Positions 20,230 to 43,584 of a stretch of DNA of 64,000 nt are shown here, in pieces. The stretch comes from Candidatus Poribacteria bacterium (GTDB lineage Bacteria > Poribacteria > WGA-4E > WGA-3G): contig OZ243938.1 in the NCBI GenBank assembly GCA_965214095.1, forward strand, positions 3,840,001-3,904,000, written 5' to 3'. Position numbers and translations under genes: made by a program. The notes under the pieces are model-generated. The model was not told where the DNA came from and did not search any database. It saw only the letters and a list, made by a program, of their open reading frames with translations. The first letter of the stretch is position 1. The number at the start of each line of letters is the position of its first letter.

Positions 20230-20583
20230 ATGGATTACACGCTTGAAAACTGCCAAAAAATAGTTGACGAATGGATTAACTCAGTTGGTGTGCGATATTT
20301 TTCGGAACTGACAAATACTGCTATTCTCATGGAGGAGGTGGGTGAGTTAGCGAGAATAATGGCACGCAAGTTCGGTGATCAAAGTTTTAAGGACAATGAA
20401 GAAGATCTAAATCTTGCTGACGAGATAGCTGATATCCTTTTTGTTCTGATATGTTTGGCAAATCAAACAGGAGTCCACCTTGAAGATGCTTTCAAGCAGT
20501 CTATTCTAAAGAAAACAGGTCGTGATAGAGATCGTCATGCTAATAATCCTAAACTCTTTTCAGATAGTGGAGAAAAAGAATAA
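20230..20583 (+). CDS. MazG-like nucleotide pyrophosphohydrolase (YpjD type)
   Basis: YFSELTNTAILMEEVGELAR, LADEIADILFVLICLANQTG. Confidence 0.9.
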   Translation: MDYTLENCQKIVDEWINSVGVRYFSELTNTAILMEEVGELARIMARKFGDQSFKDNEEDLNLADEIADILFVLICLANQTGVHLEDAFKQSILKKTGRDRDRHANNPKLFSDSGEKE

Positions 20584-25131: not shown

Positions 25132-25638
25132 ATGGTTGAAATTGGAGGACAGACGTTCTCATCAGTTGCAGATGTGCGAAAGCATGTACATGATCTGTTA
25201 AGCAATTTCCCGATGGATGAACCGTTAACAGGGACAGATGGTGCAATAATCCAGGAACTTTTCTTATGCCATCCCGATGCCGAAGAGAAAATTGGGGACA
25301 AGGAAATACAGTTCTTTAAGGTTGGGAAACATCAGCAGGCAGGGGCACGCGCATTTTGTATTGTGCGGTCAGATGATTCTGAAGAGACATTCAGTATGAA
25401 AAAGTGTGTTTCTGCATGGACACAGACACAGAAAACAGATGCATCAGCAAAAACTGCTAAAAGTCAGAAACCGAAACCACAGCAAGTTGTCAATACATTA
25501 GATTTAGAGACTGGGACAGATGTAGAAGGATTAGCTGGACTCATAATTCGCTTTCAACGTGTTGTGGATCTTCATGCACAACTCGGTCTGGAGATTCAGC
25601 AGATACAAAAAATATTGGCGGAAGAATCAAAGCAGTAG
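25132..25638 (+). CDS. DCL/DeCL (DUF3223)-like domain protein with C-terminal coiled coil
   Basis: HPDAEEKIG...FCIVRSDDSEETFSMKKCV resembles the DUF3223 HP..K.G...CF...R.DG...FSY.KC pattern. Confidence 0.65.
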   Translation: MVEIGGQTFSSVADVRKHVHDLLSNFPMDEPLTGTDGAIIQELFLCHPDAEEKIGDKEIQFFKVGKHQQAGARAFCIVRSDDSEETFSMKKCVSAWTQTQKTDASAKTAKSQKPKPQQVVNTLDLETGTDVEGLAGLIIRFQRVVDLHAQLGLEIQQIQKILAEESKQ

Positions 25639-25687
25639 GAACTAATGATGTATGTGGTTTTCCTGACATTAGACACACATCATGATT

Positions 25688-25713
25688 TAGGCGCGCTTAA
25701 AAAGCGCGCCTAC
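25688..25713. terminator. Hairpin between convergent genes (GTAG-REP-like on the minus strand)
   Basis: taggcgcgctt-aaa-aagcgcgccta. Confidence 0.6.
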
Positions 25714-25737
25714 TGCTTTGTGTAAGTTTACCTAATG

Positions 25738-26835
25738 TTATGCACTACATGCAAGCATTTTCAAACAAACTGGGTTCGGCACTTCAGTGACGTTTCCTGT
25801 ATCAGTGAGTTGACCAGTATCAGGATTGACTGCAAATGTAACTATATTACTGGTCTGTTGATTAGCAGCTAAAAGAAAGGTGCCTTCAGGATTCAATCCA
25901 AAGTTTCGTGGTGCTTGCCCTTGTGTAGATTCACAACCGGTATAATTTAACATACCAGTTTCTTGATCAATAGCGCAGATGACGATACTATCATGCCCGC
26001 GATTTGAACCGTAGAGGAATTTCCCAGATGGATGCACATGAACATCTGCGCAGTGACTTGTTCCATCAAAGTCATCGGGTAACGTAGAAATAGATTGGAT
26101 TTCAGTGAGTGAACCTGTGTTTGCATCATAGCGAAATGCAGTGAAGGTAGAATCCAATTCATTGATAACATACGCATATTTTCCATTTGGGTGAAAATCA
26201 AGGTGTCTTGGACCTGCTCCTGGATGTACCCGTGCCCATGGTTGTGTGTTCGCATTGAGTTTTCCGTTGTCTAAATCCAGTTGATAGATGAGTATTTTAT
26301 CTAGACCTAAGTCTGGGGCAAATGCATAACGGTTATCAGGATCGATCATAATGGCATGTGCGTGTGGTTCAGATTGCCGTCCGGGATTGATACTTGATCC
26401 TTGATGTTGTACAAAACTTGAAGCTTCAGCCAGCCTGCCATCTTTTCCGATGGGGAATGCAGCGACACTTCCGCCGCCGTAATTTGCAACAAGCAGGTAT
26501 TTGCCTGTTGCATCAACACTCACATGACAAGGGGCACCACCACCTGTAGCCTGTTGGTTTAGGAAGCTAATCTCTCCTGTGCTTCCATGAATGTAAAATG
26601 CTGTGACTGCGCCGCTTGCTTTGCCTTCAAATTCGCCAATTTCATTTACCGAGAAAAGGTAACGTCCACTGGGATGGATATCCAAAAATGATGGATTTAC
26701 CACACCCGTTATCTTACTGGAATATTCTAATGCACCTGTTTCTCCGTCCATGTGATAGACATATATTCCTTCGCTATCACCGTGTGTATATGTGCCAACG
26801 TAAACGTAATAATCTTGATTGTTTTCTTTTGCCAT
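25738..26835 (-). CDS. pgl: 6-phosphogluconolactonase (cycloisomerase-2 beta-propeller)
   Basis: YVGTYT, VANYGGGS, PHAH, GAGPRHLDFHP, SNRGHDS, PRNF. Confidence 0.88.
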   Translation of the reverse strand: MAKENNQDYYVYVGTYTHGDSEGIYVYHMDGETGALEYSSKITGVVNPSFLDIHPSGRYLFSVNEIGEFEGKASGAVTAFYIHGSTGEISFLNQQATGGGAPCHVSVDATGKYLLVANYGGGSVAAFPIGKDGRLAEASSFVQHQGSSINPGRQSEPHAHAIMIDPDNRYAFAPDLGLDKILIYQLDLDNGKLNANTQPWARVHPGAGPRHLDFHPNGKYAYVINELDSTFTAFRYDANTGSLTEIQSISTLPDDFDGTSHCADVHVHPSGKFLYGSNRGHDSIVICAIDQETGMLNYTGCESTQGQAPRNFGLNPEGTFLLAANQQTSNIVTFAVNPDTGQLTDTGNVTEVPNPVCLKMLACSA

Positions 26836-26861
26836 TAAATGTTTCTCCTTGCTGAAATAAA

Positions 26862-28466
26862 CTAAATAAGCTTTACATGAAGGGAGTTCTCATCACTCTC
26901 TTTATAGCCAATCCGTATTGCTTTTGTGCGTATGGTGGTTTCACCTTTTGGTAAACGTAGTGGTTCTGTATACAGTATCCAATGTACATCCTCTCCCTGT
27001 TCCATAGTATAAGCGATTGATGCACCCTGTGTGGAACAGTGAAGTTGTAATAGCATTGGTGCTTCCCATTCTCCATTCTCCACAGCTGGTTGTCTGCCTG
27101 GATTTGAGGTGTTTATTGGGATGAAAATTGGGGACGCTGTTTGTGGTTGTTCTCCATTTGGATACCACTTCGCTTTCATCTGTTCTTCGGAAATATCTCC
27201 CATATCTCCGAATGTGGATTGCCATTCTGCTAATGTATTCCGCATCCGTTCAAGCACATCTGCATGTGAGGCATCCTCTGCTAAGTTGCTGAGTTCAAAT
27301 TTATCGTTTTCAACATCGTAGAGTTCCTCTGCGGGTCGGGGGTATTGGAACATGGTCAATTGATCACCCTCTAATTTGTCTTCAGCATAAAGTCGCCACA
27401 TTTCCTGCATCACAGGATGTCGGTTGCGGTAAGGAATCCAGAGGAGATAAGGTTTTTCTGGATAGTAATTTCTAATATATTTATATTTTTTATCGCGCAC
27501 AGCACGTATCATGTCATAAGATTCATCATATCTGTCGCGAGTTGCGAAGATGTAATCACGTTCAACTTTCTGTGGTCCGAGGAAGGGTTGTCCCTGTATG
27601 TGCTGCGGCACTTGTACACCACACAACGATAATACAGTGGGTCCAAGGTCAATTAAACTGACTAATTGATCACTTTCGCTGTTTGGTGTAATTTCCTCGT
27701 GCCAACGTACGATGAGTGGTATCCGTATTCCTGCGTCATAGGGCCACCGTTTACCACGTGGGAGTCCTTCTCCGTGGTCACTCCAGATAAAGACGATAGT
27801 GTTTTCAGCGAGTCCATCTTCCTCCAATTGGTCTAACAGTTCACCGACACGTGCATCTGAAGTAGCGAGATTATCGTATTGTCGTGCTAATGCTTCGCGT
27901 GCTTTCGGTGTATCTGGTAAATATGGAGGTAACTCCACATCATCAGGATTAGTGGTTATTGGTCTGTCGTCTCTGTCCCACATTCCGCTTTCGTGTGTGA
28001 CAGTGGGATTGAAAACTGAAAAGAAAGGTTGTCCTTCCTCACGATTTCGCCAGTGACCTTGGTTGCTGTTGTCATCCCAAGCAGTGATAGGTGGGGTGAA
28101 CTGATAGTCTGTTTTGTTGTTGTTTGTGCAGTAGTAACCAGCAGCTCGTAGATATTCAGTAAAGGTCTTAACATAGTGAGGAAGCACTGCAGAATAGGGG
28201 GTTGGCATGTTCGGTGTATTGCGGTTGGTATGTCCTGTCCGCATGTGGTGTGTGCCTATAGAGGTTTGATACATGCCTGTGATAATAGCGGAACGACTCG
28301 GTGCACAGACACCAGCTGTTGAAAACGCGTTTGGAAACCGACATCCGCTGGCAGCGAGTCGGTCGATGTTTGGTGTACGTGCGATTGGGTCACCATAGCA
28401 ACCGAACCGTGGTGTTGTGTCTTCTAAAGATATCCAAAGAATGTTAGGACGATCTGATATGTTCAT
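26862..28466 (-). CDS. Sulfatase with C-terminal FN3-associated/CHB_HEX_C-like domain
   Basis: CAPSRSAIITG; C-terminal STQGASIAYT...YTEPL...KAIRIGYKES. Confidence 0.9.
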   Translation of the reverse strand: MNISDRPNILWISLEDTTPRFGCYGDPIARTPNIDRLAASGCRFPNAFSTAGVCAPSRSAIITGMYQTSIGTHHMRTGHTNRNTPNMPTPYSAVLPHYVKTFTEYLRAAGYYCTNNNKTDYQFTPPITAWDDNSNQGHWRNREEGQPFFSVFNPTVTHESGMWDRDDRPITTNPDDVELPPYLPDTPKAREALARQYDNLATSDARVGELLDQLEEDGLAENTIVFIWSDHGEGLPRGKRWPYDAGIRIPLIVRWHEEITPNSESDQLVSLIDLGPTVLSLCGVQVPQHIQGQPFLGPQKVERDYIFATRDRYDESYDMIRAVRDKKYKYIRNYYPEKPYLLWIPYRNRHPVMQEMWRLYAEDKLEGDQLTMFQYPRPAEELYDVENDKFELSNLAEDASHADVLERMRNTLAEWQSTFGDMGDISEEQMKAKWYPNGEQPQTASPIFIPINTSNPGRQPAVENGEWEAPMLLQLHCSTQGASIAYTMEQGEDVHWILYTEPLRLPKGETTIRTKAIRIGYKESDENSLHVKLI

Positions 28467-28571
28467 TCTGACTCCCTTTTTTACAAAGATTGTACCCTAA
28501 ACAGCGGTTTAAGTCAACATGGTTGTGAAGTTGTATGCGGGGTTATCGCGCCAAAGTACCGTTAAGTATAT

Positions 28572-29885
28572 TCAAGAATCCTCAGACATAACACAACGAA
28601 ACCCTATGCTATAGCACGTATATCTTGGTGTATTCCGAGAACGGTAAGCAACCCGTACATTCTGAGGTGTACTCACACAGGATCCTCCTCGCAATATCCG
28701 AGAAGACTTGATTTCCGTATAATTATTCACAGTACCATTTATACTTTCTCCTGAAATTGGGTTGTTCTCTGGTGAACGCGCGTAGAAATTTCTATCCCAT
28801 TTATCAAGACACCATTCATATACATTTCCCACTACATCATACAAGCCGTAGCCATTTGCAGGATATTGACCTACAGCTGTTGTCTTACCAATCCAAGCAT
28901 CATAGTTCACATAAGTGGTATCTATTGTGTCTCCCCACGGATATTTTTCTCCAGTGAGTCCTCCGCGTGCAGCCTTTTCCCATTCCGCCTCTGTTGGGAG
29001 TCTCTTACCTACCCAACGCGCATAAGCCATCGCAGCATACCAACTCACCCAAGTGACCGGATGGTCTTCCTCTCCTCTCGGAAAAATCCCAAAATTCCAA
29101 TTCTTCAAGTACTCACCATCGTGATATTTCCGTGGAATGCTTTCTATACCGCTTTTTCCCATTTCATACCATTTTGCTGGTTTGCACCATTCTGGATTAG
29201 CATCAACAAATTCCTTATATTGTGCGTTCGTCACAGGATATTTGTCAATATAGTAACCATCTAAATAGACAGAATGTACAGGTTTCTCATCGCTATATGC
29301 AATTATCTCTTCACTTCCCATTTGAAAACTACCAGATTGGATAAGTAGCATCCCTTCCTTTTCTGTCGGTGTCGGTATAGAGAGTTCTTCATGTTCAGAA
29401 GGAACAGTAAGCGTCTGTTCAGGAACTTCTTCTGTTTGATCTGATACAAATTCTATTGGTGATGTCTCATTACCTTGTAGAGAAGCAATATATAACTGTC
29501 GCTTTTCTGTATCTATGAGAACGTCACGCGCTTGATTTAAGAGTGTACGCCATTGTCCTTCTGTTCTACCATCAGCACGGGGACGACCACCCGCCTGCAA
29601 AGAAGCACTATACAATCTTTTATGTCCAGCCTCAACAAGATTCTGGATTTCTGCTTCATCTATGCTTCGGAACGCATCAGTAGAAAATCCTAATACATCA
29701 AAAAAACTTATATCTTCACCAACAACCAAACCGAGAGACACAAATATCTCTGTAGCCTCATCAACAGATAGACCATAGTTTTGCACTGCTTGGCGTATGA
29801 GACCCTTACGTTGATCGTTAGATATAGTTGGAGAAGCATCTCTCAGCGCACTAATTATTGTAATGAAGTCATCACGGTTTGCCAT
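28572..29885 (-). CDS. J-domain-like (HPD-less) protein fused to an FGE-sulfatase/SUMF1 domain, paralogue 4
   Basis: N-terminal FFDVLG...GGRPRADG...WRTLLNQARDVLID; C-terminal FQMGS, RLPTEAEWEKAARGG, GNVYEW, RGGS, GFRCV. Confidence 0.85.
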   Translation of the reverse strand: MANRDDFITIISALRDASPTISNDQRKGLIRQAVQNYGLSVDEATEIFVSLGLVVGEDISFFDVLGFSTDAFRSIDEAEIQNLVEAGHKRLYSASLQAGGRPRADGRTEGQWRTLLNQARDVLIDTEKRQLYIASLQGNETSPIEFVSDQTEEVPEQTLTVPSEHEELSIPTPTEKEGMLLIQSGSFQMGSEEIIAYSDEKPVHSVYLDGYYIDKYPVTNAQYKEFVDANPEWCKPAKWYEMGKSGIESIPRKYHDGEYLKNWNFGIFPRGEEDHPVTWVSWYAAMAYARWVGKRLPTEAEWEKAARGGLTGEKYPWGDTIDTTYVNYDAWIGKTTAVGQYPANGYGLYDVVGNVYEWCLDKWDRNFYARSPENNPISGESINGTVNNYTEIKSSRILRGGSCVSTPQNVRVAYRSRNTPRYTCYSIGFRCVMSEDS

Positions 29886-29897
29886 ACAATTATACCG

Positions 29898-31301
29898 TTA
29901 GAAATGATGCATAGGATTATCAGGTGCATCACGATCACGATTCAGGTCCCATAAACGTACATTCTTGTCCGTACTACCACTTGCAAGAATTTGTCCGTCA
30001 GGCGAATATGCAAGGGATTTTATTGTGGACTTATGTCCAGTGAGTGTAGAAAAAAATACATTTCTGGTAGTGTTCCAAAGACGTATCAAACCATAATAAC
30101 TACCACATGCAAGTGTTGAACCATTGGGTGAAAAAGATAAAGAATTAAACCAAGAGAGGTGTCCTGCCATAAAGTTCTGTCGTCCACCAGTTGCAGCATC
30201 CCACATAAAAATATTACCATTTAGGGTTGTGCTTGCAATAGTATTGCCATCAGGTGAATAAACCACTAAATGTACACTATTTTTGTGACCACTCAATGTG
30301 AATTTTTTGTAAAACATAACTACATCCCAAACACGAACAGTCCTATCATAACTACCACTTGCAATTGTCCTACCATCAGGTGAAAAGACGAGAGAACTTA
30401 CCCAATTGCTGTGGTCTTTGAGAATATATATTAGTTCACCTGTATTGGCTTCCCACAAGCGTACCGTTCTATCGTGACTACCACTCGCGAGTGTCTTGCC
30501 ATCAGGTGAATAGACGATTGAACTTACTGCCCCGTAATGGCCAGTGAGAGTATTTTTGAGTTCACCTGTGTCAGAATCCCATAAACGAACTGTCTTATCA
30601 TGGCTACCACTTGCAATTGTCTTACCATCGGGAGAATAAATGACCGAAGTTACTTCGTCTTGATGTCCAATAAATGTCCATTTCAGTGTTCCACTGAGTA
30701 CATTCCAGACCTTTGCTGTGCTATCTGAACTACCACTGACGAGTGTAGCACTATCCGGGGAAAATACAACAGAATTGACGGATCCTTTATGTTCTGAGAA
30801 AACTGTATCTTCTATTTTAATTTGCGGTTTTGTAATTGCATTTCTTGAAGATATAGGAACACTTTCAGGTGTATCATCGGTATTCTGGATATTTAGTTCC
30901 TCGGTGTATTCTTGCCGCCGTTGTGGGTTTGTAAGTATATCTCTTGCTTGATTTAAGACCGTACGCCATTCTGCTTCTGACTTTCCATCAGCACGAGGAC
31001 GACCACCTGCTTGCAGCGATTCAGCATATAATTTTTTATGTGCTGCTTCTACACGAGAGATAATATCAACTTTCGATAGGTTATCAATCGCAGACATTGA
31101 TAAACCCAACACCTCAAAATAGTTGATCTCCTCTCCTATTATTAATCCTGATGCATCTAAAATCTCAACCGCCTCATCAACCGAAACGTTGTACTGTTGA
31201 ACCGCCCGACGGAGTAAACCTTTACGTTGTTCATCCGATATTGTCGGAGAAATCAATTTCAACTCATTTATGAACGTAATATACTCGTCGCGTTTTGACA
31301 T
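29898..31301 (-). CDS. J-domain-like (HPD-less) protein fused to a WD40 propeller, paralogue 3
   Basis: Same N-terminal module; seven GH...SPDG..ASGS.D.TVRLWD-type repeats. Confidence 0.88.
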   Translation of the reverse strand: MSKRDEYITFINELKLISPTISDEQRKGLLRRAVQQYNVSVDEAVEILDASGLIIGEEINYFEVLGLSMSAIDNLSKVDIISRVEAAHKKLYAESLQAGGRPRADGKSEAEWRTVLNQARDILTNPQRRQEYTEELNIQNTDDTPESVPISSRNAITKPQIKIEDTVFSEHKGSVNSVVFSPDSATLVSGSSDSTAKVWNVLSGTLKWTFIGHQDEVTSVIYSPDGKTIASGSHDKTVRLWDSDTGELKNTLTGHYGAVSSIVYSPDGKTLASGSHDRTVRLWEANTGELIYILKDHSNWVSSLVFSPDGRTIASGSYDRTVRVWDVVMFYKKFTLSGHKNSVHLVVYSPDGNTIASTTLNGNIFMWDAATGGRQNFMAGHLSWFNSLSFSPNGSTLACGSYYGLIRLWNTTRNVFFSTLTGHKSTIKSLAYSPDGQILASGSTDKNVRLWDLNRDRDAPDNPMHHF

Positions 31302-31488
31302 GTTAATTCTCTTTATATTAATACTGGAAAATTGTTATGGAAGCACTCTTGTAAGACGGCTTTGTAAGCACGATATAACAGAGAACACGTTTGAATTAAC
31401 GCAATTCATTGCGTCTCATTTTACATTTGGAAGCACTATTTTATTTTTTGCTTAGAAAACTTGACAATTGAAAGCCACATGTATAGTT

Positions 31489-32778
31489 TTAGGATTGACT
31501 CGGCATAACACAACGAAACCCGACATAACTCTTCGTTCTCCATGGAGCTAAAGTGCGACGAATTGAAACTCGTACATCTTGTTCTTCAGAATTCCATGAA
31601 CCACCTCTGATCACTCGATATTTCTTAGATGTCAAATAGGCATCCAAAATCTCTTCTATACTGCCACCTGAAACAGGATTGTCTTTTTCCGATAACTTGT
31701 AGAATTTGCTATTCCATTCATCAAGACACCATTCACTTACGTTGCCTATAATATCAAACACACCGTATCCGTTTGCAGGATAGTTACCTACGGGTGTCGT
31801 TTCTCCAACCCGATTATCATAGTTTGCGTATTCTCTAGAAATTGCATTGCCCCAAGGAAACTTGTATTCAACTAATCCCCCACGTGCTGCCTTCTCCCAT
31901 TCTGCTTCAGTCGGTAGGCGTTTACCAACCCATTTTGCATACGCCATCGCAGCATGCCAACTTACCCAATTCACTGGATGGTTCTCTTTCCCACTGGGAT
32001 ACTTCCCTTTAAACCAGTCCTTCAAATAATCACTATCCCGATACTTTCTTAAAATAAATTGAAAGTTATACATCCCAAGATTATTCCATTGTGGATTAGC
32101 ATCTACAAATTCCCTATACTGTTCATTTGTCACAGGATATTTATCTATGTAGAATCCATCAACATATACTGCATGTGCAGGTTTTTCGTTTGCATGTGAA
32201 TCATATTCGTCACTCCCCATTTGGAATTCGCCAGCCGGTATAAAGACCATCCCATCATTTTCTAAAGGTACAGAACTAACATCACTTTTGGGTGTATTGG
32301 TAGCAGACTCTTCATGTGCTAATTCTTCTGCATCTAAAACTATTTCCTGTGTTGGTGATACACTGTTTTCAAGCCTGTTGATATACGCATTACGTTTTTC
32401 AACATCCATTAGAATATCACGCGCTTGATTCAGAAGTGTTCTCCACTGCTCTTCACTTTGACCATCAGCACGAGGACGACCACCTGCTTTCAACGATTCA
32501 GCATATAATTTTTTATGTGCTGCTTCTACACGAGAGATAATATCAACTTCCGATCGGTCATCAAACTCAGAGATTGTTAAACCCAACACCTCAAAATAAT
32601 CAACTTGTTCACCGATAACCAACCCAGATTCGTTCAGTATATCAACCGCCTCATTAACTGAAACGTTATACTGTTGAACCGCTCTACGGAGAAGTTCTTT
32701 TCGTTGTCCATCAGAAATTGTAGGAAAAATTGATCTTATCTCATTTATGAATGAAATATACTCATCTCGTTTAGACAT
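31489..32778 (-). CDS. J-domain-like (HPD-less) protein fused to an FGE-sulfatase domain, paralogue 2
   Basis: DYFEVLG...GGRPRADG...LLNQARDILMDVEKRNAY; FGE-domain motifs. Confidence 0.85.
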   Translation of the reverse strand: MSKRDEYISFINEIRSIFPTISDGQRKELLRRAVQQYNVSVNEAVDILNESGLVIGEQVDYFEVLGLTISEFDDRSEVDIISRVEAAHKKLYAESLKAGGRPRADGQSEEQWRTLLNQARDILMDVEKRNAYINRLENSVSPTQEIVLDAEELAHEESATNTPKSDVSSVPLENDGMVFIPAGEFQMGSDEYDSHANEKPAHAVYVDGFYIDKYPVTNEQYREFVDANPQWNNLGMYNFQFILRKYRDSDYLKDWFKGKYPSGKENHPVNWVSWHAAMAYAKWVGKRLPTEAEWEKAARGGLVEYKFPWGNAISREYANYDNRVGETTPVGNYPANGYGVFDIIGNVSEWCLDEWNSKFYKLSEKDNPVSGGSIEEILDAYLTSKKYRVIRGGSWNSEEQDVRVSIRRTLAPWRTKSYVGFRCVMPSQS

Positions 32779-32790
32779 TTTATGCTCATT

Positions 32791-34053
32791 TTAGGAATTG
32801 GTAGTATTTGATTGGATTCCAGCAGGGTGTCTCTCTGCACCGTGTCCAGATAGCACAGACCAAACACAACGAAATCCTATTACATTCAGCGAAAAGGAAG
32901 GTGACTCTGCATTACGATTCGCAATTCTTACTAAAGATGCAGGTATCCGCCAAGAACCACCACGCAGGACGCGGTTTGTTTCAACATCTAAAAAATGGTT
33001 CTCAACCCACTCAATCGAATTCGCACCAACGATCGGGTTGCGAGGCGATGACCCCATAGCGAAACCATCATGATACGCATCAAGACACCATTCCCATACA
33101 TTCCCACACATATCATATAAATCATACCTATTCGGAGGATATTGCCTAACAGGAGTAGTTTCACCGATGTTCCAGTCATAATTTGCCATTGATGGATCTG
33201 CATCATCACCCCACGTGTACTTATTCCCACTGACACCACCGCGTGCTGCTTTTTCCCATTCTGCCTCTGTAGGAAGTCGTTTGCCAATCCATTGAGCATA
33301 AGCCATCGCGGCATACCAACTCACATTGACAACTGGGTGTTCGGCTTGAGAATCACGAAAACTGTTCGCTTTCCAATGCTTTAGATAGTCAACATCACTA
33401 TATTCATGAGGAATGTTATGCCGGTTCCATTCTGGGTTTTCATCCACAAATGCCTTATACTGTGAGTTTGTCACAGGATATTTATCAATATAAAACGCAT
33501 CCAGATAAACGGAGTGGATAGGATGTTCATCACCATAAGCTTCGTCATCAGCACTGCCCATTTGGAATTCACCTGCAGGAATCAGTGCCATGTTGTCAAG
33601 TTTCGGAGTCCTCAACGTCTTCTCAATACTTACCGTCTCTTGTTGTATGCTTGACAGATGTCCCAATCTTCTTTTAGGGTCTATTAAAGAATCACGGGCT
33701 TGATTCAAGAGTGTCCGCCACTGCTCCTCTGTCTTGCCATCAGCACGGGGACGACCACCTGCTTTCAACGATTCAGCATATAACGTCCTATGTGCTGCTT
33801 CAACACGATGAACAATCTCTACTTCGCTGAGGTTTTCAAGTTCTGAGATTGACAAACCCAATACCTGAAAATAATCAACCTGCTCACCGACCTGTATTCC
33901 TGATGAATTGAGGATGTCTATGGCTTCATCAACAGTGAGTCCATATTCCTGAACACCTAACCGAACAAAACCTTTACGTTGTTCATCTGTTATTGTCGGT
34001 GAAGCTGTTCTGAGCGCGCTGATAAACGTAATATATTCTTCGCGCTTGGACAT
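32791..34053 (-). CDS. J-domain-like (HPD-less) protein fused to an FGE-sulfatase domain, paralogue 1
   Basis: DYFQVLG...GGRPRADG...LLNQARDSLIDPKRR; FGE-domain motifs. Confidence 0.85.
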   Translation of the reverse strand: MSKREEYITFISALRTASPTITDEQRKGFVRLGVQEYGLTVDEAIDILNSSGIQVGEQVDYFQVLGLSISELENLSEVEIVHRVEAAHRTLYAESLKAGGRPRADGKTEEQWRTLLNQARDSLIDPKRRLGHLSSIQQETVSIEKTLRTPKLDNMALIPAGEFQMGSADDEAYGDEHPIHSVYLDAFYIDKYPVTNSQYKAFVDENPEWNRHNIPHEYSDVDYLKHWKANSFRDSQAEHPVVNVSWYAAMAYAQWIGKRLPTEAEWEKAARGGVSGNKYTWGDDADPSMANYDWNIGETTPVRQYPPNRYDLYDMCGNVWEWCLDAYHDGFAMGSSPRNPIVGANSIEWVENHFLDVETNRVLRGGSWRIPASLVRIANRNAESPSFSLNVIGFRCVWSVLSGHGAERHPAGIQSNTTNS

Positions 34054-34100
34054 AAATTCATTTCCTATGCAAAAATACTTCGGACGAAGTTAGGAGATAC

Positions 34101-34125
34101 TATACCATTTCTGAAAAATGGTATA
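34101..34125. promoter_or_regulatory. 10-bp inverted repeat between hsp70 and the J-like genes
   Basis: tataccattt-ctgaa-aaatggtata. Confidence 0.4.
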
Positions 34126-34154
34126 TCAGACACAAATACATTGTTGGCAAAACA

Positions 34155-35750
34155 CTATTCAACAACAAGATCCTGAAGTTCTGTTTTAGCCTGTGCAACC
34201 TCATCTTCATTGAGCGTAGGTCGTTCAATAATAGAGAAAAGATCGTAAACAGCAGTCGCCTCATCATTTGAGAGAGATTTAGCGGTCACCTCAAGATTCT
34301 GGTCTAAGTTGTATTTATAGTTCACCTCAATCGGTGCCCCTTGTGGCAAACCGAGGGGTAGTTCCAGTGTACATTCACCCAATTTGTATTCATCAAACAG
34401 ATCAATATCATCCTTACGTTGGTCCTGCTCAAGTCCTTGCACCACTTCAATTAACACGGATGGTTGATTGTGGTCCACCGTCAAGAACTTATCCGCTACT
34501 TCACACGGAATTGCTGTCATTTTCGGTATCATCACATGAATAACATACTCACGCAGTGCATTAAGAACAATAAGACCAAGATTATGTGTTGCACCATCAG
34601 TAACCGTTACTTTCGGAACACCATCAGGACCGATGAAACGGTCTATAACTGCCTCGGGCATATCTACCGTCTCTGTATCTCCCTCCGTAATCTGACGGAG
34701 AGTCCCCTGAATCGCTGCACCGAGAGCCACGACTTCATCAGGATTGACTTCATGCGGATTGATCTCTTTCCCACTAAGTGTAGCTATCATCTCTTGTATC
34801 ATCGGCATCCGTGTTGAACCACCTACCAATAGGATTTTATCAATATCTTCCCACGACATATCTGCTTCAGAAAGGACAACATTGCACAGCACACGACATT
34901 TTTCAAGCAAGTCCGAGGTGAGTTGTTCAAACTTCTCACGTGTCAACTCAACACGTGTTGTTTTGCCATTGTAACCACATACGATCAATGCTCTCTGTCT
35001 TAACGACAAAGATTCTTTCGCAGTAATCGCATCCAATTGAAGGTCTTGATATGAGTGAAGGTCAACTAATGGATTCTCACCGTGTTCTATCTCAAACATC
35101 TCTGCGACATGCATGATGATTTTATCGTCCCAATCTTTTCCACCCAAACGATGGTCACCATTTGTCGCAAGCATCTGTATCTCCGACTCAGATACACTCA
35201 TGATCGTCACATCAAACGTGCCACCGCCAAGGTCAAACACAAATACATTCTGATTGCTTCCCAATTGGTCCATCCCATAAGCAAGTGCAGCAGCAGTCGG
35301 TTCATTGAGTACCTGCAAGACATTCAATCCTGCAATTCTACCAGCGTTTCGTGTTGCTTCGCGTTCAGCATCGTGAAAATAAGCGGGGACAGTAACAACA
35401 GCATCCGTTATCTCTTCACCCAGATAAGTTTCCGCATCCTGCTTGAGTTTCGTGAGAATAACCGCAGAGAGTTCTTCGGGGGAATAGTCCTTCTCATCAA
35501 ACGTGCGAAAGAATTCCGACTTGGATTTACCCATCTCGCGCTTAATAAATTCAACAATCTGTTCTGGTACTGCCCGTGCATTTTGCTTCGCTATCTTCCC
35601 AACCGTTACAAGATTGTCTTCAAACATTACAACCGAAGGTGTAATACGTTCACTCTCTAAGTTCGGTATTATCTCCGCTTGTCCATGTTCATTCACATGT
35701 GCAATCACTGAAAATGTCGTCCCAAGGTCAATTCCAACGACTTTACCCAT
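34155..35750 (-). CDS. Specialised Hsp70 (DnaK paralogue lacking most of the helical lid)
   Basis: GIDLGTTFS, TVPAYF, NEPTAAALAYG, VFDLGGGTFDV, LLVGGSTRMP, NPDEVVALGAA; about 530 aa; ATG overlaps the grpE-like stop. Confidence 0.92.
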   Translation of the reverse strand: MGKVVGIDLGTTFSVIAHVNEHGQAEIIPNLESERITPSVVMFEDNLVTVGKIAKQNARAVPEQIVEFIKREMGKSKSEFFRTFDEKDYSPEELSAVILTKLKQDAETYLGEEITDAVVTVPAYFHDAEREATRNAGRIAGLNVLQVLNEPTAAALAYGMDQLGSNQNVFVFDLGGGTFDVTIMSVSESEIQMLATNGDHRLGGKDWDDKIIMHVAEMFEIEHGENPLVDLHSYQDLQLDAITAKESLSLRQRALIVCGYNGKTTRVELTREKFEQLTSDLLEKCRVLCNVVLSEADMSWEDIDKILLVGGSTRMPMIQEMIATLSGKEINPHEVNPDEVVALGAAIQGTLRQITEGDTETVDMPEAVIDRFIGPDGVPKVTVTDGATHNLGLIVLNALREYVIHVMIPKMTAIPCEVADKFLTVDHNQPSVLIEVVQGLEQDQRKDDIDLFDEYKLGECTLELPLGLPQGAPIEVNYKYNLDQNLEVTAKSLSNDEATAVYDLFSIIERPTLNEDEVAQAKTELQDLVVE

Positions 35751-36444
35751 TCGTATTGTCCCCTTTCTCACCAGAAGTAGATTTACTTACAATTTCTTCA
35801 CTGTTTTCTGTTGAATCGGAATAACGATAAATTGTCACCTCTTCCGGACGAAATACCTTGTCACGCCAATTGAACCCTATTTTATGTACTTCAGCAATTG
35901 TCTTGTCCTGCTTAGGATCATCTGTTGATATTGTTTGGCGAGTCTTATGCAGTTGCCGATCAAGCGTCCTTGTGGACTCCGCATAAGGTGTTACATCCAA
36001 ACGGTACAATACCTCTTCCAATTTATATCGGAAATTCTCAAGATTGTTCCGATATTGTGTTAAACCATCAGAGATAACTCCATCTTCCGCCTCAAGTATG
36101 ACATCAAGTTGAGATTCAAGCAACAGATAACTGTCGTAAAGTTGAATCAGATTGTGGATAATCGGTTTGTGAAGTACTTCCAGAAGGAAACTCTCTTTAT
36201 AGTCCTTCATCTCCGCATAAATCTTGTCAAACATCTCTGTCTGATTCTGATTGCGAGCAATCTGCTTCTCAAATAATTCTTGTAACGCAGCCAAACTTTG
36301 TTGGATTACTGATAACTCACTATGAGACGACATTTCAGGATTGTCTTCTGATGGAAAGGTATCCACTGCTACATCAAATTCCATTTCAGCCTCATCACTG
36401 TTCTCTTCTAAATGTGCATCATTTTCATTTTTTTTCTTATCCAT
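35743..36444 (-). CDS. grpE: GrpE-like nucleotide exchange factor
   Basis: Acidic N-terminus, long helix, C-terminal LDRQLHK...IAEVHKIGFNWRDKVFRPEEVTIY GrpE head; coupled to hsp70. Confidence 0.8.
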   Translation of the reverse strand: MDKKKNENDAHLEENSDEAEMEFDVAVDTFPSEDNPEMSSHSELSVIQQSLAALQELFEKQIARNQNQTEMFDKIYAEMKDYKESFLLEVLHKPIIHNLIQLYDSYLLLESQLDVILEAEDGVISDGLTQYRNNLENFRYKLEEVLYRLDVTPYAESTRTLDRQLHKTRQTISTDDPKQDKTIAEVHKIGFNWRDKVFRPEEVTIYRYSDSTENSEEIVSKSTSGEKGDNTNG

Positions 36445-36535
36445 ATTTTTCGCATACCTCCCCAATTATAGAGACACCTGAGACCCAAAAGGATAGCAAT
36501 AAATACCAGTGGACTGACAAAGATATTAATTATTT

Positions 36536-37828
36536 TTACCCCTTCTGCCACGGCACACTTCCCGCTCTCTGAGTCTCCTCCTGAAACAGATTTCTCATCT
36601 CATTATACATTTTTTTATCCGATTGAGAAATATCTGTTGTCTCTAAAGGATCGTTGGATAGGTCATAAAGTTCCAACGGTTCAAATGGACGGTTATGCAG
36701 CAACTTTATATCACCTCGACGAACTGCATGCTGACACTGACCACTAAACTGTTGTCCACCTTCCCTACGTATCCAATATAAGAGACGATCAGACAAATCC
36801 TGTTTTTCTCCCTGAAATGTTCCCCAAATCGAATGACCATCAATTTCATGTTGAACAGGCACATCTGCAACTTCACATAGTGTCGGTAACAAATCACTCA
36901 ACATAGCAACCTGATCCGACACATGTCCTTCCGGCATATTTTCTTGCCACATAGCACAAGTCGGTACGCGTATTCCCCCTTCATACATCTCACCTTTCTG
37001 ACCACGCAACGGACCGTTGTGTGCACCAACATTCATCTGTCCTCCATTATCCGACGAATAGATGACAAGTGTGTTTGACAACTGATTAGTCTCCTCAAGT
37101 GTGTCAAGCACTCGTCCGATACCGGCATCCATGTGTTCAACAAGGGCAACATACTTCGCACGTTGATCAGAAATATCTGGTTCACGTTTCTTCACGCGTT
37201 CTATCCAATCGTCTGGGGGTTGAATTGGTGTGTGCGGTGCATTGTACGCGAGATATAAGAAAAATGGATGGGAAGTATGTGCATGCGTTCGAATAAAATC
37301 AACACTCCAATCAGAAAACAGATCTGTCGCATGCCCTCTCGGATCAATAGTACCATAATCGTCCCGCATATAGTTGTTGTTATGCCGAAGGTGTGTATAA
37401 TAGTCATCCATCATATCACCAAGGAAACCATGAAAATGGTCAAACCCGCGTTTACAAGGATGGTTCTCATCTTCAAGACCCAAATGCCACTTCCCGATAA
37501 GTGCCGTACGATAGTCTTTCTGCTTCAACATTGAAGGTAACGTAATCGCATCCTGACGAAAGTAACCCCAATTGTTCTGTGCATGTGTGCGAACCACTCC
37601 CGGAACACCAACCCTATCGGGATAACGTCCTGTCATCAGCGAAGCACGACTCGGAGAACACACTGAACAATTCGCATAAAAATTCGTAAAACGCACACCT
37701 TCATTCGCAATTCTGTCTATATTCGGTGTTTGTATTGATGGTCCATCATGTGCAGAAATATCACCATAACCGTGATCATCTGCAAGAATCAGTAATATGT
37801 TCGGTTGTTTTGCCATAGTATTCTCCAA
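36536..37828 (-). CDS. Sulfatase (arylsulfatase/GalNAc-6-sulfatase-like)
   Basis: PNILLILADDHGYGD, CSPSRASLMTG, GKWHLG. Confidence 0.9.
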   Translation of the reverse strand: MENTMAKQPNILLILADDHGYGDISAHDGPSIQTPNIDRIANEGVRFTNFYANCSVCSPSRASLMTGRYPDRVGVPGVVRTHAQNNWGYFRQDAITLPSMLKQKDYRTALIGKWHLGLEDENHPCKRGFDHFHGFLGDMMDDYYTHLRHNNNYMRDDYGTIDPRGHATDLFSDWSVDFIRTHAHTSHPFFLYLAYNAPHTPIQPPDDWIERVKKREPDISDQRAKYVALVEHMDAGIGRVLDTLEETNQLSNTLVIYSSDNGGQMNVGAHNGPLRGQKGEMYEGGIRVPTCAMWQENMPEGHVSDQVAMLSDLLPTLCEVADVPVQHEIDGHSIWGTFQGEKQDLSDRLLYWIRREGGQQFSGQCQHAVRRGDIKLLHNRPFEPLELYDLSNDPLETTDISQSDKKMYNEMRNLFQEETQRAGSVPWQKG

Positions 37829-37877
37829 ATATGTGATTTTTGTTCTGATTAGATTTAAAAATACGCTTTACAATAAC

Positions 37878-37981
37878 TATGGTAAATTATTGAATTAATT
37901 CTACACATTGCTGAGGCGAGGTTAGGAAACCTCGCCTACCGTTGATAGAAAGTGTAGATATAATTTTATGCTTCACCATAA
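37878..37981. repeat. MITE-like/REP composite repeat, variant type
   Basis: Ends TATGGTAAA...TTCACCATA; internal hairpin aggcgaggttaggaaacctcgcctac. Confidence 0.7.
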
Positions 37982-38036
37982 AACGCGTTAGTAGTCGCGC
38001 AATGCATTGCATCTAGTGTTCTGTCTACTCTAATCT

Positions 38037-38120
38037 TGTAGGTCGGGTAGAGGCACGAAACCCGACATGCAGCCATTTATCATCAATAAAGTCGGGTTTC
38101 GTGCCTCTACCCGACCTACA
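38037..38120. repeat. REPIN-type inverted GTAG-REP doublet
   Basis: tgtaggtcgggtagaggcacgaaacccgac ... gtcgggtttcgtgcctctacccgacctaca (perfect inverted pair). Confidence 0.85.
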
Positions 38121-38242
38121 ATGTCCGAATGGACACTCCACTAGGACATCTCCTTGCATAAGAAAGATACGCTAATTCAAATCGTATTACTAAACCCTAC
38201 CCAACCTCCAATAAAATGGATTCCAAATCTTCTAAACCATAT

Positions 38243-39223
38243 CTAAGCATACGCAGCTTGAATCAACGCATTTATATATCCAAATTGATATGCCCACGCC
38301 TGCCGAACTCGTCCAGACACACCTTCAGGAGCAGTATCGTCAGGATGAGATGGTGCATGGTCTGGCATCAACATATACGGATAATCCACATCACGTAAGG
38401 TTTGTGCAACCTTATACATATCCACATCACCTTCGTCAGGCCACACCTCTTGGAAGTTGTGCAAACCACCCCGTATATTGCGGAAATGTATGTTGAATAT
38501 CTTTTTGCGTTCACCAAAATACGCAATAATCTCGTATAATTCAGAACCGGGATCCTCTAAACCCTCAGATACAACTCCGCAGCAGAAATTAAATCCGTGA
38601 TATGGACTTTCATTGATTTCAGCAAATCTTTTTAATCCATCAAATATCGGATAATTCCAACGTTCAACACCTCGTAAAATTGGCGCAGGTGGATCATTAG
38701 GATGACATGCCATCTGAACCTTGTTTTCTTCCGCAACAGGAATGACATGTTCAAGAAAGTATGCAATTCTGTCAAATGCCTCTTCCCGACTCACCTCACC
38801 TGCATCAGAAAGTGTATCGTTGTCATACTTAGAGAAATCAAATGTACTATACCTTGAACCACCACGTCCAAGCGTGCTTTCTGTCCGTTGATGATTCAGG
38901 ATACAGAAATTATAGTTCAGACCACGTAAACCTGCCTTCGCAGCATGCTCTATGGTCTCACACACGCCATCAAGGTCTCTATCTCGTTGTGGATCTTGAG
39001 CCAATGTAATACTTCTTGGTAGTCCAATATGAATCATCTCAAGACTCACACCCGCAGCTTCTGCTTCTGCTTTGTGTTGCATCAACGTCTCGGGTTGAGT
39101 GTTTCTGACTGAAGCATCCATGTGTGTAACACCATGCCGCACAAGAAACTCCAACTCTTTTGGAGATGTCCCTACACCCTGTACCCCTACATGCATCTTC
39201 CCATTGTTGTTTGTTGTTTCCAT
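38243..39223 (-). CDS. Mannonate dehydratase (UxuA)-family TIM-barrel protein
   Basis: RBS AAGGAGG; MACHPNDPP, GFNFCCG, IHFRN, DEGDVDM, MPDHAP. Confidence 0.8.
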   Translation of the reverse strand: METTNNNGKMHVGVQGVGTSPKELEFLVRHGVTHMDASVRNTQPETLMQHKAEAEAAGVSLEMIHIGLPRSITLAQDPQRDRDLDGVCETIEHAAKAGLRGLNYNFCILNHQRTESTLGRGGSRYSTFDFSKYDNDTLSDAGEVSREEAFDRIAYFLEHVIPVAEENKVQMACHPNDPPAPILRGVERWNYPIFDGLKRFAEINESPYHGFNFCCGVVSEGLEDPGSELYEIIAYFGERKKIFNIHFRNIRGGLHNFQEVWPDEGDVDMYKVAQTLRDVDYPYMLMPDHAPSHPDDTAPEGVSGRVRQAWAYQFGYINALIQAAYA

Positions 39224-39420
39224 AACACAATCCTCCTTTTGGTATAGAATCCATTGACGAATTGTATCATGTTCACAACTTATGGTCAATTCCTACAACA
39301 TGTACTCTTGTTAGACGGGTTTCCAACCCGATTTCTTTTTACACGTTACACAAAAACAACATTGCCATAAATAACAATACATGCTAAATTGAAAATAGCA
39401 AACAGAAGAGACTTATCACT

Positions 39421-40272
39421 ATGAAAACTAAATTTACCACACTACTCTTTTTCGCAATATTTCTACCACATTTCTTCAATTCTACATCAATAGCATTGCA
39501 AGATCCGCTTACACTCGGTGATCACTTTATTAAATTAAACAATTACGATGCTGCGATCACAGAATATAAACGGTTCATTTTCTTTCATCCAGACGATATA
39601 CGCGTCTCAGAAACCTACAATCAGATCGGACTCGCATATCGTTCACAAGGCTTATGGCAAGAAGCAATATTCGCACTGAGAAATGCCGTCTTAAACGCAA
39701 ATACAGACGAGCATAAATCTGTATTTCAACTTAACCTCGCAGTTACACTCATCGCATCAGAAAACTATGACCTTGCCCGATTAGAATTGATCAAAGTGAT
39801 GCTACGAAACACAAGTGATACAACATACAAACGTTCACTATTTTTACAAGCAGTGACGTATATTTACCAGTATCGATGGGAGGATGCTCGTAAAATCCTT
39901 AAGGACTATACCACTGATGAATCGCTAAATCAACTCTTTGAGAAAGCGATGAATCTCACACAAAAGTCTACAAAAGTCGCCAAAGTGTTATCCGCAGTCA
40001 TACCGGGAACAGGTCAGATGTATGCAGGCAGCTGGGGAGGCGGGTTGAACGCACTTGGACTAAACGGGGTGCTTGGATACGTTACAGTAGATGCCGTCTT
40101 GAATGGTCATTACATAGATGCAGCGTTATGGACATACTTTATTTTTAGGAGATACTATATGGGAAATCTGTATAGATCAGGAACCGCAGTAGAAACATAT
40201 AATCAAGAACAATCCCAACGTGCCGCTGAAAACATCCTACAAAGTCTTCAGGAAATTGCCAACAAGAAGTGA
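39421..40272 (+). CDS. Exported TPR-repeat protein
   Basis: Signal peptide; YDAAITEYKRF TPR; LSAVIPGTGQMYAG TM2-like motif. Confidence 0.75.
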   Translation: MKTKFTTLLFFAIFLPHFFNSTSIALQDPLTLGDHFIKLNNYDAAITEYKRFIFFHPDDIRVSETYNQIGLAYRSQGLWQEAIFALRNAVLNANTDEHKSVFQLNLAVTLIASENYDLARLELIKVMLRNTSDTTYKRSLFLQAVTYIYQYRWEDARKILKDYTTDESLNQLFEKAMNLTQKSTKVAKVLSAVIPGTGQMYAGSWGGGLNALGLNGVLGYVTVDAVLNGHYIDAALWTYFIFRRYYMGNLYRSGTAVETYNQEQSQRAAENILQSLQEIANKK

Positions 40273-42186: not shown

Positions 42187-43584
42187 CTAAAAGTCTGTTG
42201 CAATCCCTACCATCACTGAGGTCTTATGGATAGGCTCAAATTGTACAACACCTTCATCTGTCGTTACACGACGGAAGCGATATTCATTGATTATAATCGT
42301 TTGAACAGGAGGAACAACAACATATCGGATTTCTAAGTTAAGAGCAGACCTTTCATCAAGATCAATCAAATCCTTGAAGAAACCTGTTATGCCATCTTCA
42401 CCAATATTCCGTTTAGTATAGAATGCACGAAATGAAAGACGTGGAACTAAACTAGATTCCTTTATGCCTAAATAGAGTTTTGATGTGTTATTGTTATATC
42501 TCTCAAAAGCACCCAGTAGATTGATTTGGGGTAGTGGTTGCCAAATAAGTTGTGTGTAATAACCGTGTCTCGCTTCATCGGTTTCTTCATATCCCCAAAA
42601 CTCAGGCGTTCCTATTTCATAAGTGTAATCAAAAACAGAAGGAATGTAGCCATCACTGAAAATACGGTATTCTAATTTGATAATCGCTTTGTTATGCACA
42701 AAACCGATACCGGTAGCATTTCCAATACCCAAGTCTGATACTGATGTAACCTCATCTGTTGTGGAATCATCCGGTTGTGTCTCAGTATCATCAACTTCTA
42801 AATCTATAACATCTGGTTTTGGAGGAGGATTAAGTGCAGCAATATCGTTATACAAATCAAGTCGAAAAGTACTACGTTCAAAAATTGGAAACCCAAAATC
42901 TACACCGACTGCATTCAAGGGTTCTTCACCTTTTTCCAGAGAGTTAGGGTCAATATCGGTAAGATAAGTAGCACCGACTTCAAATCGCGTCAAAAGGTTG
43001 TTGTTTTCTTGCCGTAGAAATGGTCGGTAAAACCCACGTCCACCGAAAATAGTGGGTGCACCGAAGTCATTCAACATTGTTTCAACACCATATTTCCTAT
43101 CAGATTTTCTGATGTTAAAATGCAAACCACGCCGATCATGATTAGAATAACCTGACATGATTGAACCGTGTCCTATCGTGAGATAGTCGAATTCACCCAG
43201 TCGGAAGTATAAAGGATCGTAAGGTTGTCCATAACGGAAATAGCGGATCAATCTTAACCAAGTGCTGAAGCTGTCCCATGTCTCACCATCCTCTGCCAGG
43301 AAGCGATCTTCTCCAACTTCTGCATAAGGATTGTAGAGCAACACAAAATCAAAACCCAGACCGAAATTGCCGATCGGGAATTCCGGTTGAAGTTGAAGTC
43401 GAACAAAAACATCACCGTTTATGAAAGTTAAGCCACCACCATAAAACCCACTTGTGAGGAAGTTCTTTTCAACCATCGGTGTTGACATATCTTGGGCAAA
43501 AATTGGCGGGCAAAAGAGAAACAGAAATGTGATAGCAATAAAAATACTTCGTCTTAACATACTAACCAACGTAATAGTTCTCAT
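42187..43584 (-). CDS. Hypothetical exported, probably outer-membrane beta-barrel protein
   Basis: Signal peptide; alternating beta-strands; terminal Phe. Confidence 0.6.
   Translation of the reverse strand: MRTITLVSMLRRSIFIAITFLFLFCPPIFAQDMSTPMVEKNFLTSGFYGGGLTFINGDVFVRLQLQPEFPIGNFGLGFDFVLLYNPYAEVGEDRFLAEDGETWDSFSTWLRLIRYFRYGQPYDPLYFRLGEFDYLTIGHGSIMSGYSNHDRRGLHFNIRKSDRKYGVETMLNDFGAPTIFGGRGFYRPFLRQENNNLLTRFEVGATYLTDIDPNSLEKGEEPLNAVGVDFGFPIFERSTFRLDLYNDIAALNPPPKPDVIDLEVDDTETQPDDSTTDEVTSVSDLGIGNATGIGFVHNKAIIKLEYRIFSDGYIPSVFDYTYEIGTPEFWGYEETDEARHGYYTQLIWQPLPQINLLGAFERYNNNTSKLYLGIKESSLVPRLSFRAFYTKRNIGEDGITGFFKDLIDLDERSALNLEIRYVVVPPVQTIIINEYRFRRVTTDEGVVQFEPIHKTSVMVGIATDF

Follow-up and report, generated by a model that had tools for sequence, protein, structure and literature searches.

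What a second Hsp70 is for, when it is encoded together with a GrpE of its own and with four J-like proteins that lack the HPD tripeptide, is the question raised by six genes in the window, a 64,000-nt stretch of contig C1 of a 5.25-Mb, four-contig genome of Candidatus Poribacteria. All six genes lie on the minus strand within 28572-36465, in the order grpE-like, hsp70 and four paralogues that we call adaptors. The answer that we consider probable is a lineage-specific accessory Hsp70 machine, in which a lid-less Hsp70 with its own GrpE would be aimed, by multi-copy J-like adaptors, at ligands bound by the C-terminal domains of those adaptors. It looks like a specialized Hsp70/J-protein system whose chaperone is directed to selected targets in a manner not described before.

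The second Hsp70 and its GrpE

The grpE-like gene (35743-36465, minus strand) encodes a GrpE-like nucleotide-exchange factor of 240 aa with an acidic N-terminal tail, read from a TTG start; the sequence-only reading had ended the gene at 36444, which is an ATG at residue 8. The protein matches PF01025 (E 9.8e-11, 42 bits against a cut-off of 25.8) over profile positions 12-163 of 165. Because it clears this cut-off and yet scores below all NCBIfam GrpE equivalog cut-offs, we regard it as a divergent member of the GrpE family. The hsp70 gene, also on the minus strand, spans 34155-35750 from an ATG start (531 aa) or extends to 35771 from a GTG start (538 aa). The hsp70 ATG and the grpE TAA share an 8-nt overlap at 35743-35750 (ATGGGTAA). 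The Hsp70 matches PF00012 (E 1.9e-123, profile positions 1-509 of 599) and remains well below the NCBIfam models for DnaK (432 and 419 bits against cut-offs of 648 and 822), as well as below the cut-off for HscA. The co-oriented grpE-like gene, hsp70 and four paralogues, together with the overlap, had been read from the letters before, and both the sequence and the Pfam matches bear this layout out.

A profile scan of the whole genome finds two matches each for Hsp70 and GrpE, and no more. Canonical dnaK lies at C1:2540614 and a canonical grpE-dnaJ pair at C1:268674/269342, so that the Hsp70 and GrpE of the window are indeed a second, dedicated pair, as had been proposed. The genome also encodes three true DnaJ proteins, one beside the canonical grpE and two elsewhere.

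The dedicated Hsp70 shares 42% identity with the DnaK of this genome and 33% with E. coli HscC. Its nucleotide-binding domain (NBD) and the beta part of its substrate-binding domain (SBD-beta) are present, and the protein stops just past the latter, leaving the SBD-alpha lid absent. The interdomain linker is altered (VTVTDGATHNLG), reading VTVTDGAT for the ILLLDVTP of DnaK, and is preceded by a 14-residue insert. In the alignment, the Hsp70 has a glutamine in LQVLNEP where the genome's DnaK has an arginine in LRIINEP. We take this to be the position of R167 in E. coli DnaK, the residue that partners the aspartate of the HPD motif of J domains. Across 17 orthologues of the dedicated Hsp70, the position is occupied by Q in 15 and by H in two, and the lid is absent from every one; E. 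coli HscC retains the arginine.

In a maximum-likelihood tree, small (20 rows) and with an arbitrary root, the dedicated Hsp70s form a clade of their own with 100/100 support. With 99/99 support, this clade nests in a larger group together with Hsp70-vWA fusions and two other forms from the Poribacteria phylum, and the group stands apart from DnaK (the genome's own and that of E. coli) and from HscA, with HscC on a long branch. The missing lid, the altered linker, the sub-cut-off scores and the glutamine at the R167 position rule out a DnaK-type identity for the Hsp70. An HscC-type identity is ruled out by the low sequence identity, by a tree that does not group the two, and by the adjoining dedicated GrpE.

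The Hsp70-vWA fusions (706-766 aa) occur beside grpE-hsp70-J-like genes in three related loci (L039 3143-5263; L067 10625-12892, minus strand; L074 15346-17646), where they are the first gene of the operon. No such fusion is present in this genome, which has two Hsp70 matches in all.

The adaptors: a shared module and C-terminal domains

The first 140 residues of the four adaptors align without gaps, with a mean column identity of 75% and 55 invariant columns, which include AGGRPRADG and W..T.LNQARD.L. A shared N-terminal module of about 135 aa had been claimed, and at 140 aa it is found in all four paralogues. The module consists of two units, a three-helix unit (residues 1-58, the N-unit) and a J-like part (residues 59-139). 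In adaptor 1 (32791-34053, 420 aa) these are encoded at 33880-34053 and 33634-33879, and in adaptor 2 (31489-32778, 429 aa) at 32605-32778 and 32359-32604; in adaptor 3 (29898-31301, 467 aa) and adaptor 4 (28572-29885, 437 aa) the whole module occupies 30882-31301 and 29466-29885, all on the minus strand.

Profile comparisons suggest that residues 59-139 are a remote, HPD-less homologue of the J domain. Aligned with hhalign, a profile of 18 modules matches the genome's three true J domains with a probability of 91.6% (E 8e-7), placing module residues 59-133 on J residues 2-65, and a profile of 20 J-like domains matches the same three with 94.2% (E 1e-7); both alignments span helices I-IV. A hidden Markov model (HMM) built from the 20 sequences retrieves 24 chains from the PDB at E<=10, 17 of which are named DnaJ, J-type, HscB, Jac1 or mL77, the others being one chain with an uninformative name and six that are unrelated. 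Some of these matches span the full length (1bqz, 2-75 on 4-66, E 0.031; 5nro_B). The profile of 18 modules was also searched against 1.84 billion representative proteins, of which only 133 clusters passed E<=0.001. In many of these the match is confined to residues 59-139 and lies at the protein's own N terminus; in others it is confined to residues 1-58, which are sometimes repeated. The weak tail of this search includes proteins with genuine HPD J domains (P0242, P0248), and in a form from another family (f3, locus L066) the 8-residue insert is missing, so that the spacing is that of a canonical J domain.

An AlphaFold2 model of residues 1-140 of adaptor 2, made from an 18-row alignment (pLDDT 83.2, pTM 0.57), is consistent with this assignment. 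In the J-like part the predicted order is helix I (61-64), a short insert (69-72), a long helix II (77-98), a 10-residue loop (99-108) that contains GGRPRADG, helix III (109-124) and helix IV (126-139). As modelled, the GGRPRxDG loop occupies the place of the HPD between helices II and III, with the order and spacing of a J domain. Taken together with the hhalign and PDB matches, the model upholds the J-domain-like pattern of the sequence-only reading for residues 59-139, at the level of a remote homologue without HPD.

The HPD tripeptide is absent from all 20 aligned J-like domains. In this genome it is replaced by A-G-G-[RL]-P-R-x-D-G in 11/11 copies, and relatives have related PRxDG loops or, as a third subtype, DHTDRG. 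In the 18-row alignment the P-R-x-D-G and W columns are invariant or at least 90% conserved, and in the 20-row alignment they are at least 90% conserved.

Two side observations concern the J-like family. The 536-aa protein P0164, from a single-member cluster, has an Hsp70 NBD without an SBD fused to an N-unit and a J-like domain with the DHTDRG loop, and its NBD has Q in place of R167. The fusion may be natural, or it may be an artefact of assembly or deletion. A region without a Pfam match, around FKFPNGDEATS, follows the J-like domain at L039 7995-9395 and in many proteins of the type 2 system described below (P0178, P0180, P0184), and it seems to be another undescribed domain of the family.

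The N-unit has three helices in the model, at 3-17, 23-36 and 41-51. It has no Pfam match at E<=1, and a profile search of the PDB returned three chance-level matches, none of them TerB, so that the likeness to the TerB-like unit of DjlA that had been suggested for it is not supported. We also considered that the N-unit might be a duplicate of the J-like part and rejected this (hhalign probability 2.6%). In the relatives P0146, P0156, P0160 and P0170 the N-unit is repeated behind the J-like domain.

Adaptors 1, 2 and 4 end in a domain that matches PF03781 (FGE-sulfatase; FGE, formylglycine-generating enzyme) with E values from 1e-62 to 8e-67 (1.2e-62 for adaptor 4), and adaptor 3 ends in seven WD40 repeats (PF00400, E 6.5e-79). 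Three C termini of the FGE fold and one of WD40 type are what had been anticipated; that each would be different is not the case, since the FGE-like family accounts for three of the four adaptors of the window and for 10 of the genome's 11 copies. In the PDB, the FGE-like domain is closest to FGEs of bacteria and of human (E 5e-35 to 3e-28), along with SUMF2 (E 8e-27). Compared with the Streptomyces FGE (6muj) and with 2q17, LCHDSYCNRYR has become RIPASL---VR, with the cysteine pair gone and three residues deleted. A pattern search, together with inspection of the C termini by eye, finds the FGE cysteine pair in 0/26 FGE-like ORFs of the genome. We therefore reject a true, active FGE. The sole clear radical-SAM sulfatase maturase of the genome scores 527 bits (cut-off 349) at C1:2810173, beside a sulfatase, and formylglycine is presumably made by this radical-SAM route. 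Because the cysteine pair is missing and a genuine maturase is present, we predict that the FGE-like domains are binders and not enzymes. Relative to FGE/SUMF1 and pFGE/SUMF2, then, the fold is the same, whereas the cysteine pair is lost and the domain is fused to a J-like module and predicted to be cytoplasmic.

In the wider family the C termini include FGE-like, WD40, ankyrin, TPR, HEAT, PEGA, PG-binding, SH3 and DctQ-like membrane domains. The idea of swappable C-terminal domains thus fits the family as a whole, and fits this genome poorly, where the FGE-like type dominates. A crude hydropathy scan gives transmembrane-like segments in 45 of the 82 family members of at least 200 aa and in none of the four adaptors of the window. 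A protein of locus L074 illustrates the membrane form, with a J-like domain followed by a helix pair resembling the N-unit, a charged coil, a transmembrane helix and an FGE-like domain. In the same locus, a YhgA-like transposase fragment and a Gp49-like gene of toxin-antitoxin type (11551-13256) lie between hsp70 and the J-like/FGE gene.

Distribution and gene linkage

The module occurs in 11 copies in this genome, four in the window and seven at C1:3943590-3954758. Within the phylum it is present in 61 of 176 genomes, and in 58 of the 111 genomes of one family; such recurrence is not chance. Copy numbers range from 0 to 13 per genome (1-13 where present), and the module is absent from six of the 39 other genomes of the genus, two of which are single-contig assemblies. 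This variable, patchy occurrence argues for an accessory system. A GrpE-like orthologue is found in 46 of the 176 genomes: 45 have both it and the module, one has the GrpE-like protein only, 16 the module only and 114 neither.

Linkage to hsp70 and grpE in other genomes, on which the sequence-only reading had staked itself beforehand, is strong. For 36 of 38 full-length GrpE-like matches, a J-like gene lies within 10 kb on the same strand among the module matches listed (150 of 331), and the other two (G073, G079) are not decidable among those listed. The order grpE-hsp70-J-like is kept in eight of nine distant loci that were fetched, including loci from families f3 and f6. A further 30 loci were fetched by a J-like peptide pattern, 26 from metagenome-assembled genomes (MAGs) of Candidatus Poribacteria and four labelled 'uncultured bacterium'. 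In 16 of them an hsp70 lies in the 8-kb flank, 5' of the J-like gene or genes and on the same strand; the other 14 are arrays with no hsp70 within the fetched stretch. A search for related loci with the distant member P0226 found nothing. In a 'type 2' system (L036-L041), J-like domains without the N-unit come directly after grpE-hsp70.

The second array of this genome (L031 7590-18758, plus strand) lies about 68 kb from the first and comprises seven module plus FGE-like genes. It is accompanied by neither hsp70 nor grpE, and the genes 5' of it encode a sulfatase, a dioxygenase of PhyH-like type and a fusion protein, RDD-PspA/IM30. With seven more adaptors at this distance that lack their own Hsp70, and with some relatives that have hsp70 and adaptors without a dedicated grpE, the system cannot be called self-contained, as it once was.

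There is a weak hint that the operon is expressed in relatives. RNA-library contigs of a relative that is 95-96% identical contain portions of hsp70, of two adaptors and of the grpE/hsp70 junction, and metatranscriptome contigs of relatives cover 31504-32234 of adaptor 2; at this identity, with partial coverage and from four runs of a single study, the RNA contigs are no proof of transcription.

Function, rival explanations and surroundings

In the mechanism that we favor for the accessory Hsp70 machine, the C-terminal domain of an adaptor would bind a specific protein or glycan ligand, and the J-like domain would dock on the private Hsp70 through a rewired interface in which Q or H stands for R167. 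The target of the Hsp70 would then be this ligand or the adaptor itself, and GrpE would reset the Hsp70.

Several observations weigh against this reading. The J fold is claimed from remote profile homology and the helix order of one model. PF00226 has no match to the four adaptors at E<=1, and across the genome it finds four ordinary places, none of them in the adaptor arrays; the J-like HMM has no match to the genome's true DnaJ proteins at E<=10; and the individual PDB matches are all non-significant (E 0.03-0.9). To our knowledge, the HPD is needed for ATPase stimulation in every J domain that has been studied, so that the J-like domains may bind the Hsp70 without activating it, or may not bind it. 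The 16 module-bearing genomes without a GrpE-like match count on the same side, as do several arrays far from any hsp70, including the seven-gene array of this genome. Conserved synteny also overstates the independent support, because the genomes are kin from one phylum and mostly from one family, and in one subclade a co-oriented sulfatase is a conserved upstream neighbor as well. Finally, the ten FGE-type paralogues are 53.5% identical in the module and 50.7% in the FGE-like domain, and no template repeats of the kind used by diversity-generating retroelements (DGRs) were found for the last 240 nt of the ten genes. Since the FGE-like domains are no more variable than the module and lack such repeats, rapid arms-race diversification is disfavored.

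The sulfatase neighbor leads to the first of three other explanations, a sulfatase-linked chaperone, which we consider improbable. Here the Cys-less FGE-like domains would read the C/S-x-P-x-R motif of nascent sulfatases, and the private Hsp70 would keep these unfolded until the radical-SAM maturase forms formylglycine; in a narrower version, only the co-transcribed sulfatase would be served. The FGE fold is the fold that binds the sulfatase motif, and the inactive human FGE paralogue pFGE/SUMF2 still recognizes it. A Cys-type sulfatase without a signal peptide (36536-37828, minus strand, a PF00884 match in the scan of the genome) lies directly 5' of grpE across a 70-nt gap, and a second Cys-type sulfatase (26862-28466, minus strand) lies directly 3' of adaptor 4 across 105 nt. 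Orthologues of the upstream gene lie directly 5' of grpE or hsp70 in eight loci (L054, L057, L058, L059, L061, L062, L065, L068), with a stop/start overlap with hsp70 in L058, L059 and L061, and precede them with a gap in L069; those of L068 and L069 are 78-79% identical. The second array is likewise preceded by a sulfatase, the window has a neighborhood of sulfatase/uronate type (sulfatase, lactonase, UxuA-like and TRAP-transporter genes), and the genome has about 50 sulfatases (53 matches at E<=0.001) for one clear maturase. However, with that many sulfatases, locally clustered, in 5.2 Mb, some adjacency is expected, and the upstream neighbor is absent from L036-L041, L066, L067 and L070-L073. 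WD40, ankyrin, TPR, HEAT and the extracytoplasmic PEGA and PG-binding forms are also ill-suited as readers of a sulfatase motif. Five genomes with neither a module nor a GrpE-like match, four of them from the same genus, still have 22-48 sulfatase matches at E<=1e-20. Because genomes without the system keep their sulfatases, and because many related loci have no sulfatase neighbor, sulfatase maturation is unlikely as the general role; a narrower link of the system to the co-oriented upstream sulfatase is possible.

The loss of the HPD could also mean that the J-like domains are inert or regulatory, after the manner of Pam16/Tim16, HPD-less J-like regulators that are paired with a true J protein. 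The domains would then tether or inhibit, or would themselves be clients, with the Hsp70 controlling adaptor oligomerization and an ordinary DnaJ activating it in trans. This we hold to be less probable again than the sulfatase explanation, even though the operon encodes no HPD-bearing J protein, the three ordinary DnaJ proteins could act in trans, and the repeats of the N-unit behind the J-like domain in four relatives suggest a separate interaction role. The loop that replaces the HPD, PRxDG with the following W, is highly conserved, as would be expected of a functional contact; the loss of R167 in 17/17 Hsp70 orthologues makes activation by a canonical DnaJ less likely, given the contact role of that arginine; and the strict order of hsp70 before the J-like genes argues for direct partnership. 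The likeness to Pam16/Tim16 thus lies in a J-derived helical domain that has lost its HPD and acts, or here would act, inside an Hsp70 system, and the differences lie in the conserved replacing loop, the altered Hsp70 and the lack of a true J protein nearby. Poribacteria are known for eukaryote-like proteins, and the adaptors might be repeat or lectin proteins of that kind meant for the sponge host, with the Hsp70 and GrpE as their folding or export chaperone. All named relatives come from Candidatus Poribacteria MAGs, and the family has ankyrin, WD40, TPR and HEAT forms and neighbors with LRRs. We give this explanation very little weight, as the adaptors of the window have no transmembrane-like segment, the conserved module occupies the N-terminal position of a signal peptide, and no secretion-system genes are seen among the Pfam-scanned neighbors. 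Membrane-anchored relatives, in addition, place the J-like domain on the cytoplasmic side of the transmembrane segment, which points to inward signaling and not to export of the whole protein.

The accessory Hsp70 machine can be set beside known specialized chaperones. Passages of Mayer 2021 (PMC8215388) distinguish three types of prokaryotic Hsp70 and state that HscA and HscC work without GrpE. The HscC-DjlB/DjlC and HscA-HscB systems likewise have a second Hsp70 beside their own class-C-like J proteins, which serve as targeting factors, and the dedicated Hsp70 resembles HscC, as those passages describe it, in being short and in missing the NBD segment of DnaK ~76-101. Unlike both, it has a dedicated GrpE and misses the entire lid, and its J-like partners, devoid of HPD/HPE, form arrays of 4-13 paralogues that carry binding domains. 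It further differs from HscC in belonging to another clade and in having lost the arginine. The comparison with HscC and DjlB/DjlC drawn in the sequence-only reading is therefore apt as an analogy and fails as a relationship, given the 33% identity and the separate clades.

A second comparison is with conflict systems. According to passages of Kaur et al. 2020 (eLife, PMC7159879), FGS (FGE-sulfatase) domains are C-terminal binder effectors of chaperone-vWA systems; the systems described there include MoxR-vWA ternary systems and GAP1-N2 systems with Hsp70-GrpE-DnaJ, and the passages on Hsp70 deal with GTPase systems of actinobacteria and firmicutes that have ordinary DnaJ-FNIII proteins. The locus shares with them an ATP-driven chaperone with a co-chaperone, and multi-paralogue proteins whose C-terminal part is an FGS domain, WD40 or another kind of repeat. 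FGS domains stand at the C terminus throughout, membrane forms occur, the distribution is patchy, and Hsp70-vWA fusions are found in relatives (L039, L067, L074); the binder set of FGS, WD40, TPR and ankyrin is typical of STAND or vWA-type systems. In contrast to such systems, there is no MoxR, vWA, STAND, GTPase, tubulin, EAD or enzymatic effector among the Pfam-scanned genes of the window (not every ORF was scanned), and no sign of a DGR at this locus. We do not place the locus in a MoxR-vWA or GTPase-centered system, since the core components were not seen among the scanned window proteins.

In the main texts that were searched, no account turned up of HPD-less J-like proteins that carry FGE-like or WD40 domains and are encoded beside a lid-less Hsp70. 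A survey of ~280,000 J-domain proteins, in its passages on the main dataset (PMC10410713), dropped sequences without a full HPD, and a family such as this one would be invisible to surveys of that kind.

As to what the machine does, the analogy with chaperone-vWA-FGS conflict systems makes surveillance or neutralization of foreign or host-derived molecules our first candidate among specific roles, at less than even odds. A narrower sulfatase- or glycan-related role seems rather unlikely, and the rest of our expectation goes to roles other than these. A bolder reading, which we regard as speculative and on balance unlikely, is that of a fourth kind of prokaryotic Hsp70 machine, with HPD-free switching through a co-evolved PRxDG loop that meets Q or H, and with receptor arrays that provide antibody-like surveillance and neutralization in sponge symbionts. 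The receptors, in that same speculation, would be J-like proteins, both cytoplasmic and membrane-spanning (FGE-lectin fold, WD40, ankyrin, TPR), that recognize foreign or host molecules and thereby engage the chaperone.

The HPD is regarded as a defining and indispensable feature of the J domain. If the J-like domains do drive the private Hsp70, then the J-Hsp70 allosteric switch can be rewired, and the two would form an orthogonal chaperone/co-chaperone pair and a bacterial Hsp70 type beyond DnaK, HscA and HscC. That the adaptors are multi-copy and come in lectin-fold, WD40, ankyrin and membrane-spanning forms suggests chaperone power aimed at chosen ligands, with a possible bearing, in these uncultivated sponge symbionts, on defense against phage, on how host molecules are handled or on the metabolism of sulfated glycans. 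Recombinant proteins would allow the idea to be approached without culture of the organism.

Around the six genes, a lactonase gene (25738-26835) lies beyond the downstream sulfatase, and these two are probably context outside the system. A promoter and terminator scan of 25500-39500 gave the same counts as shuffled sequence. PADLOC recognized no known defense system; the GrpE-like protein and the three FGE-type adaptors had no match, and there were a weak match of PDC-M61B to the Hsp70 (E 0.0012) and a match of HEAT-ARM_XIII that was driven by the WD40 repeats.

Elsewhere in the window, a giant ORF of 3067 aa (3326-12529, plus strand) carries bacterial Ig-like (Big_13, Big_7), glucodextranase-B-like and Y_Y_Y domains in its C-terminal third, and its first ~2000 residues have no Pfam match at E<=1e-5. 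A 465-aa ORF (42187-43584, minus strand), also without a Pfam match at E<=1e-5, lies between a TRAP DctM-type permease and an FtsX/MacB-like permease. At 20583-23309 (plus strand), a 908-aa protein combines TPR repeats with DUF3857 and a transglutaminase-like core.

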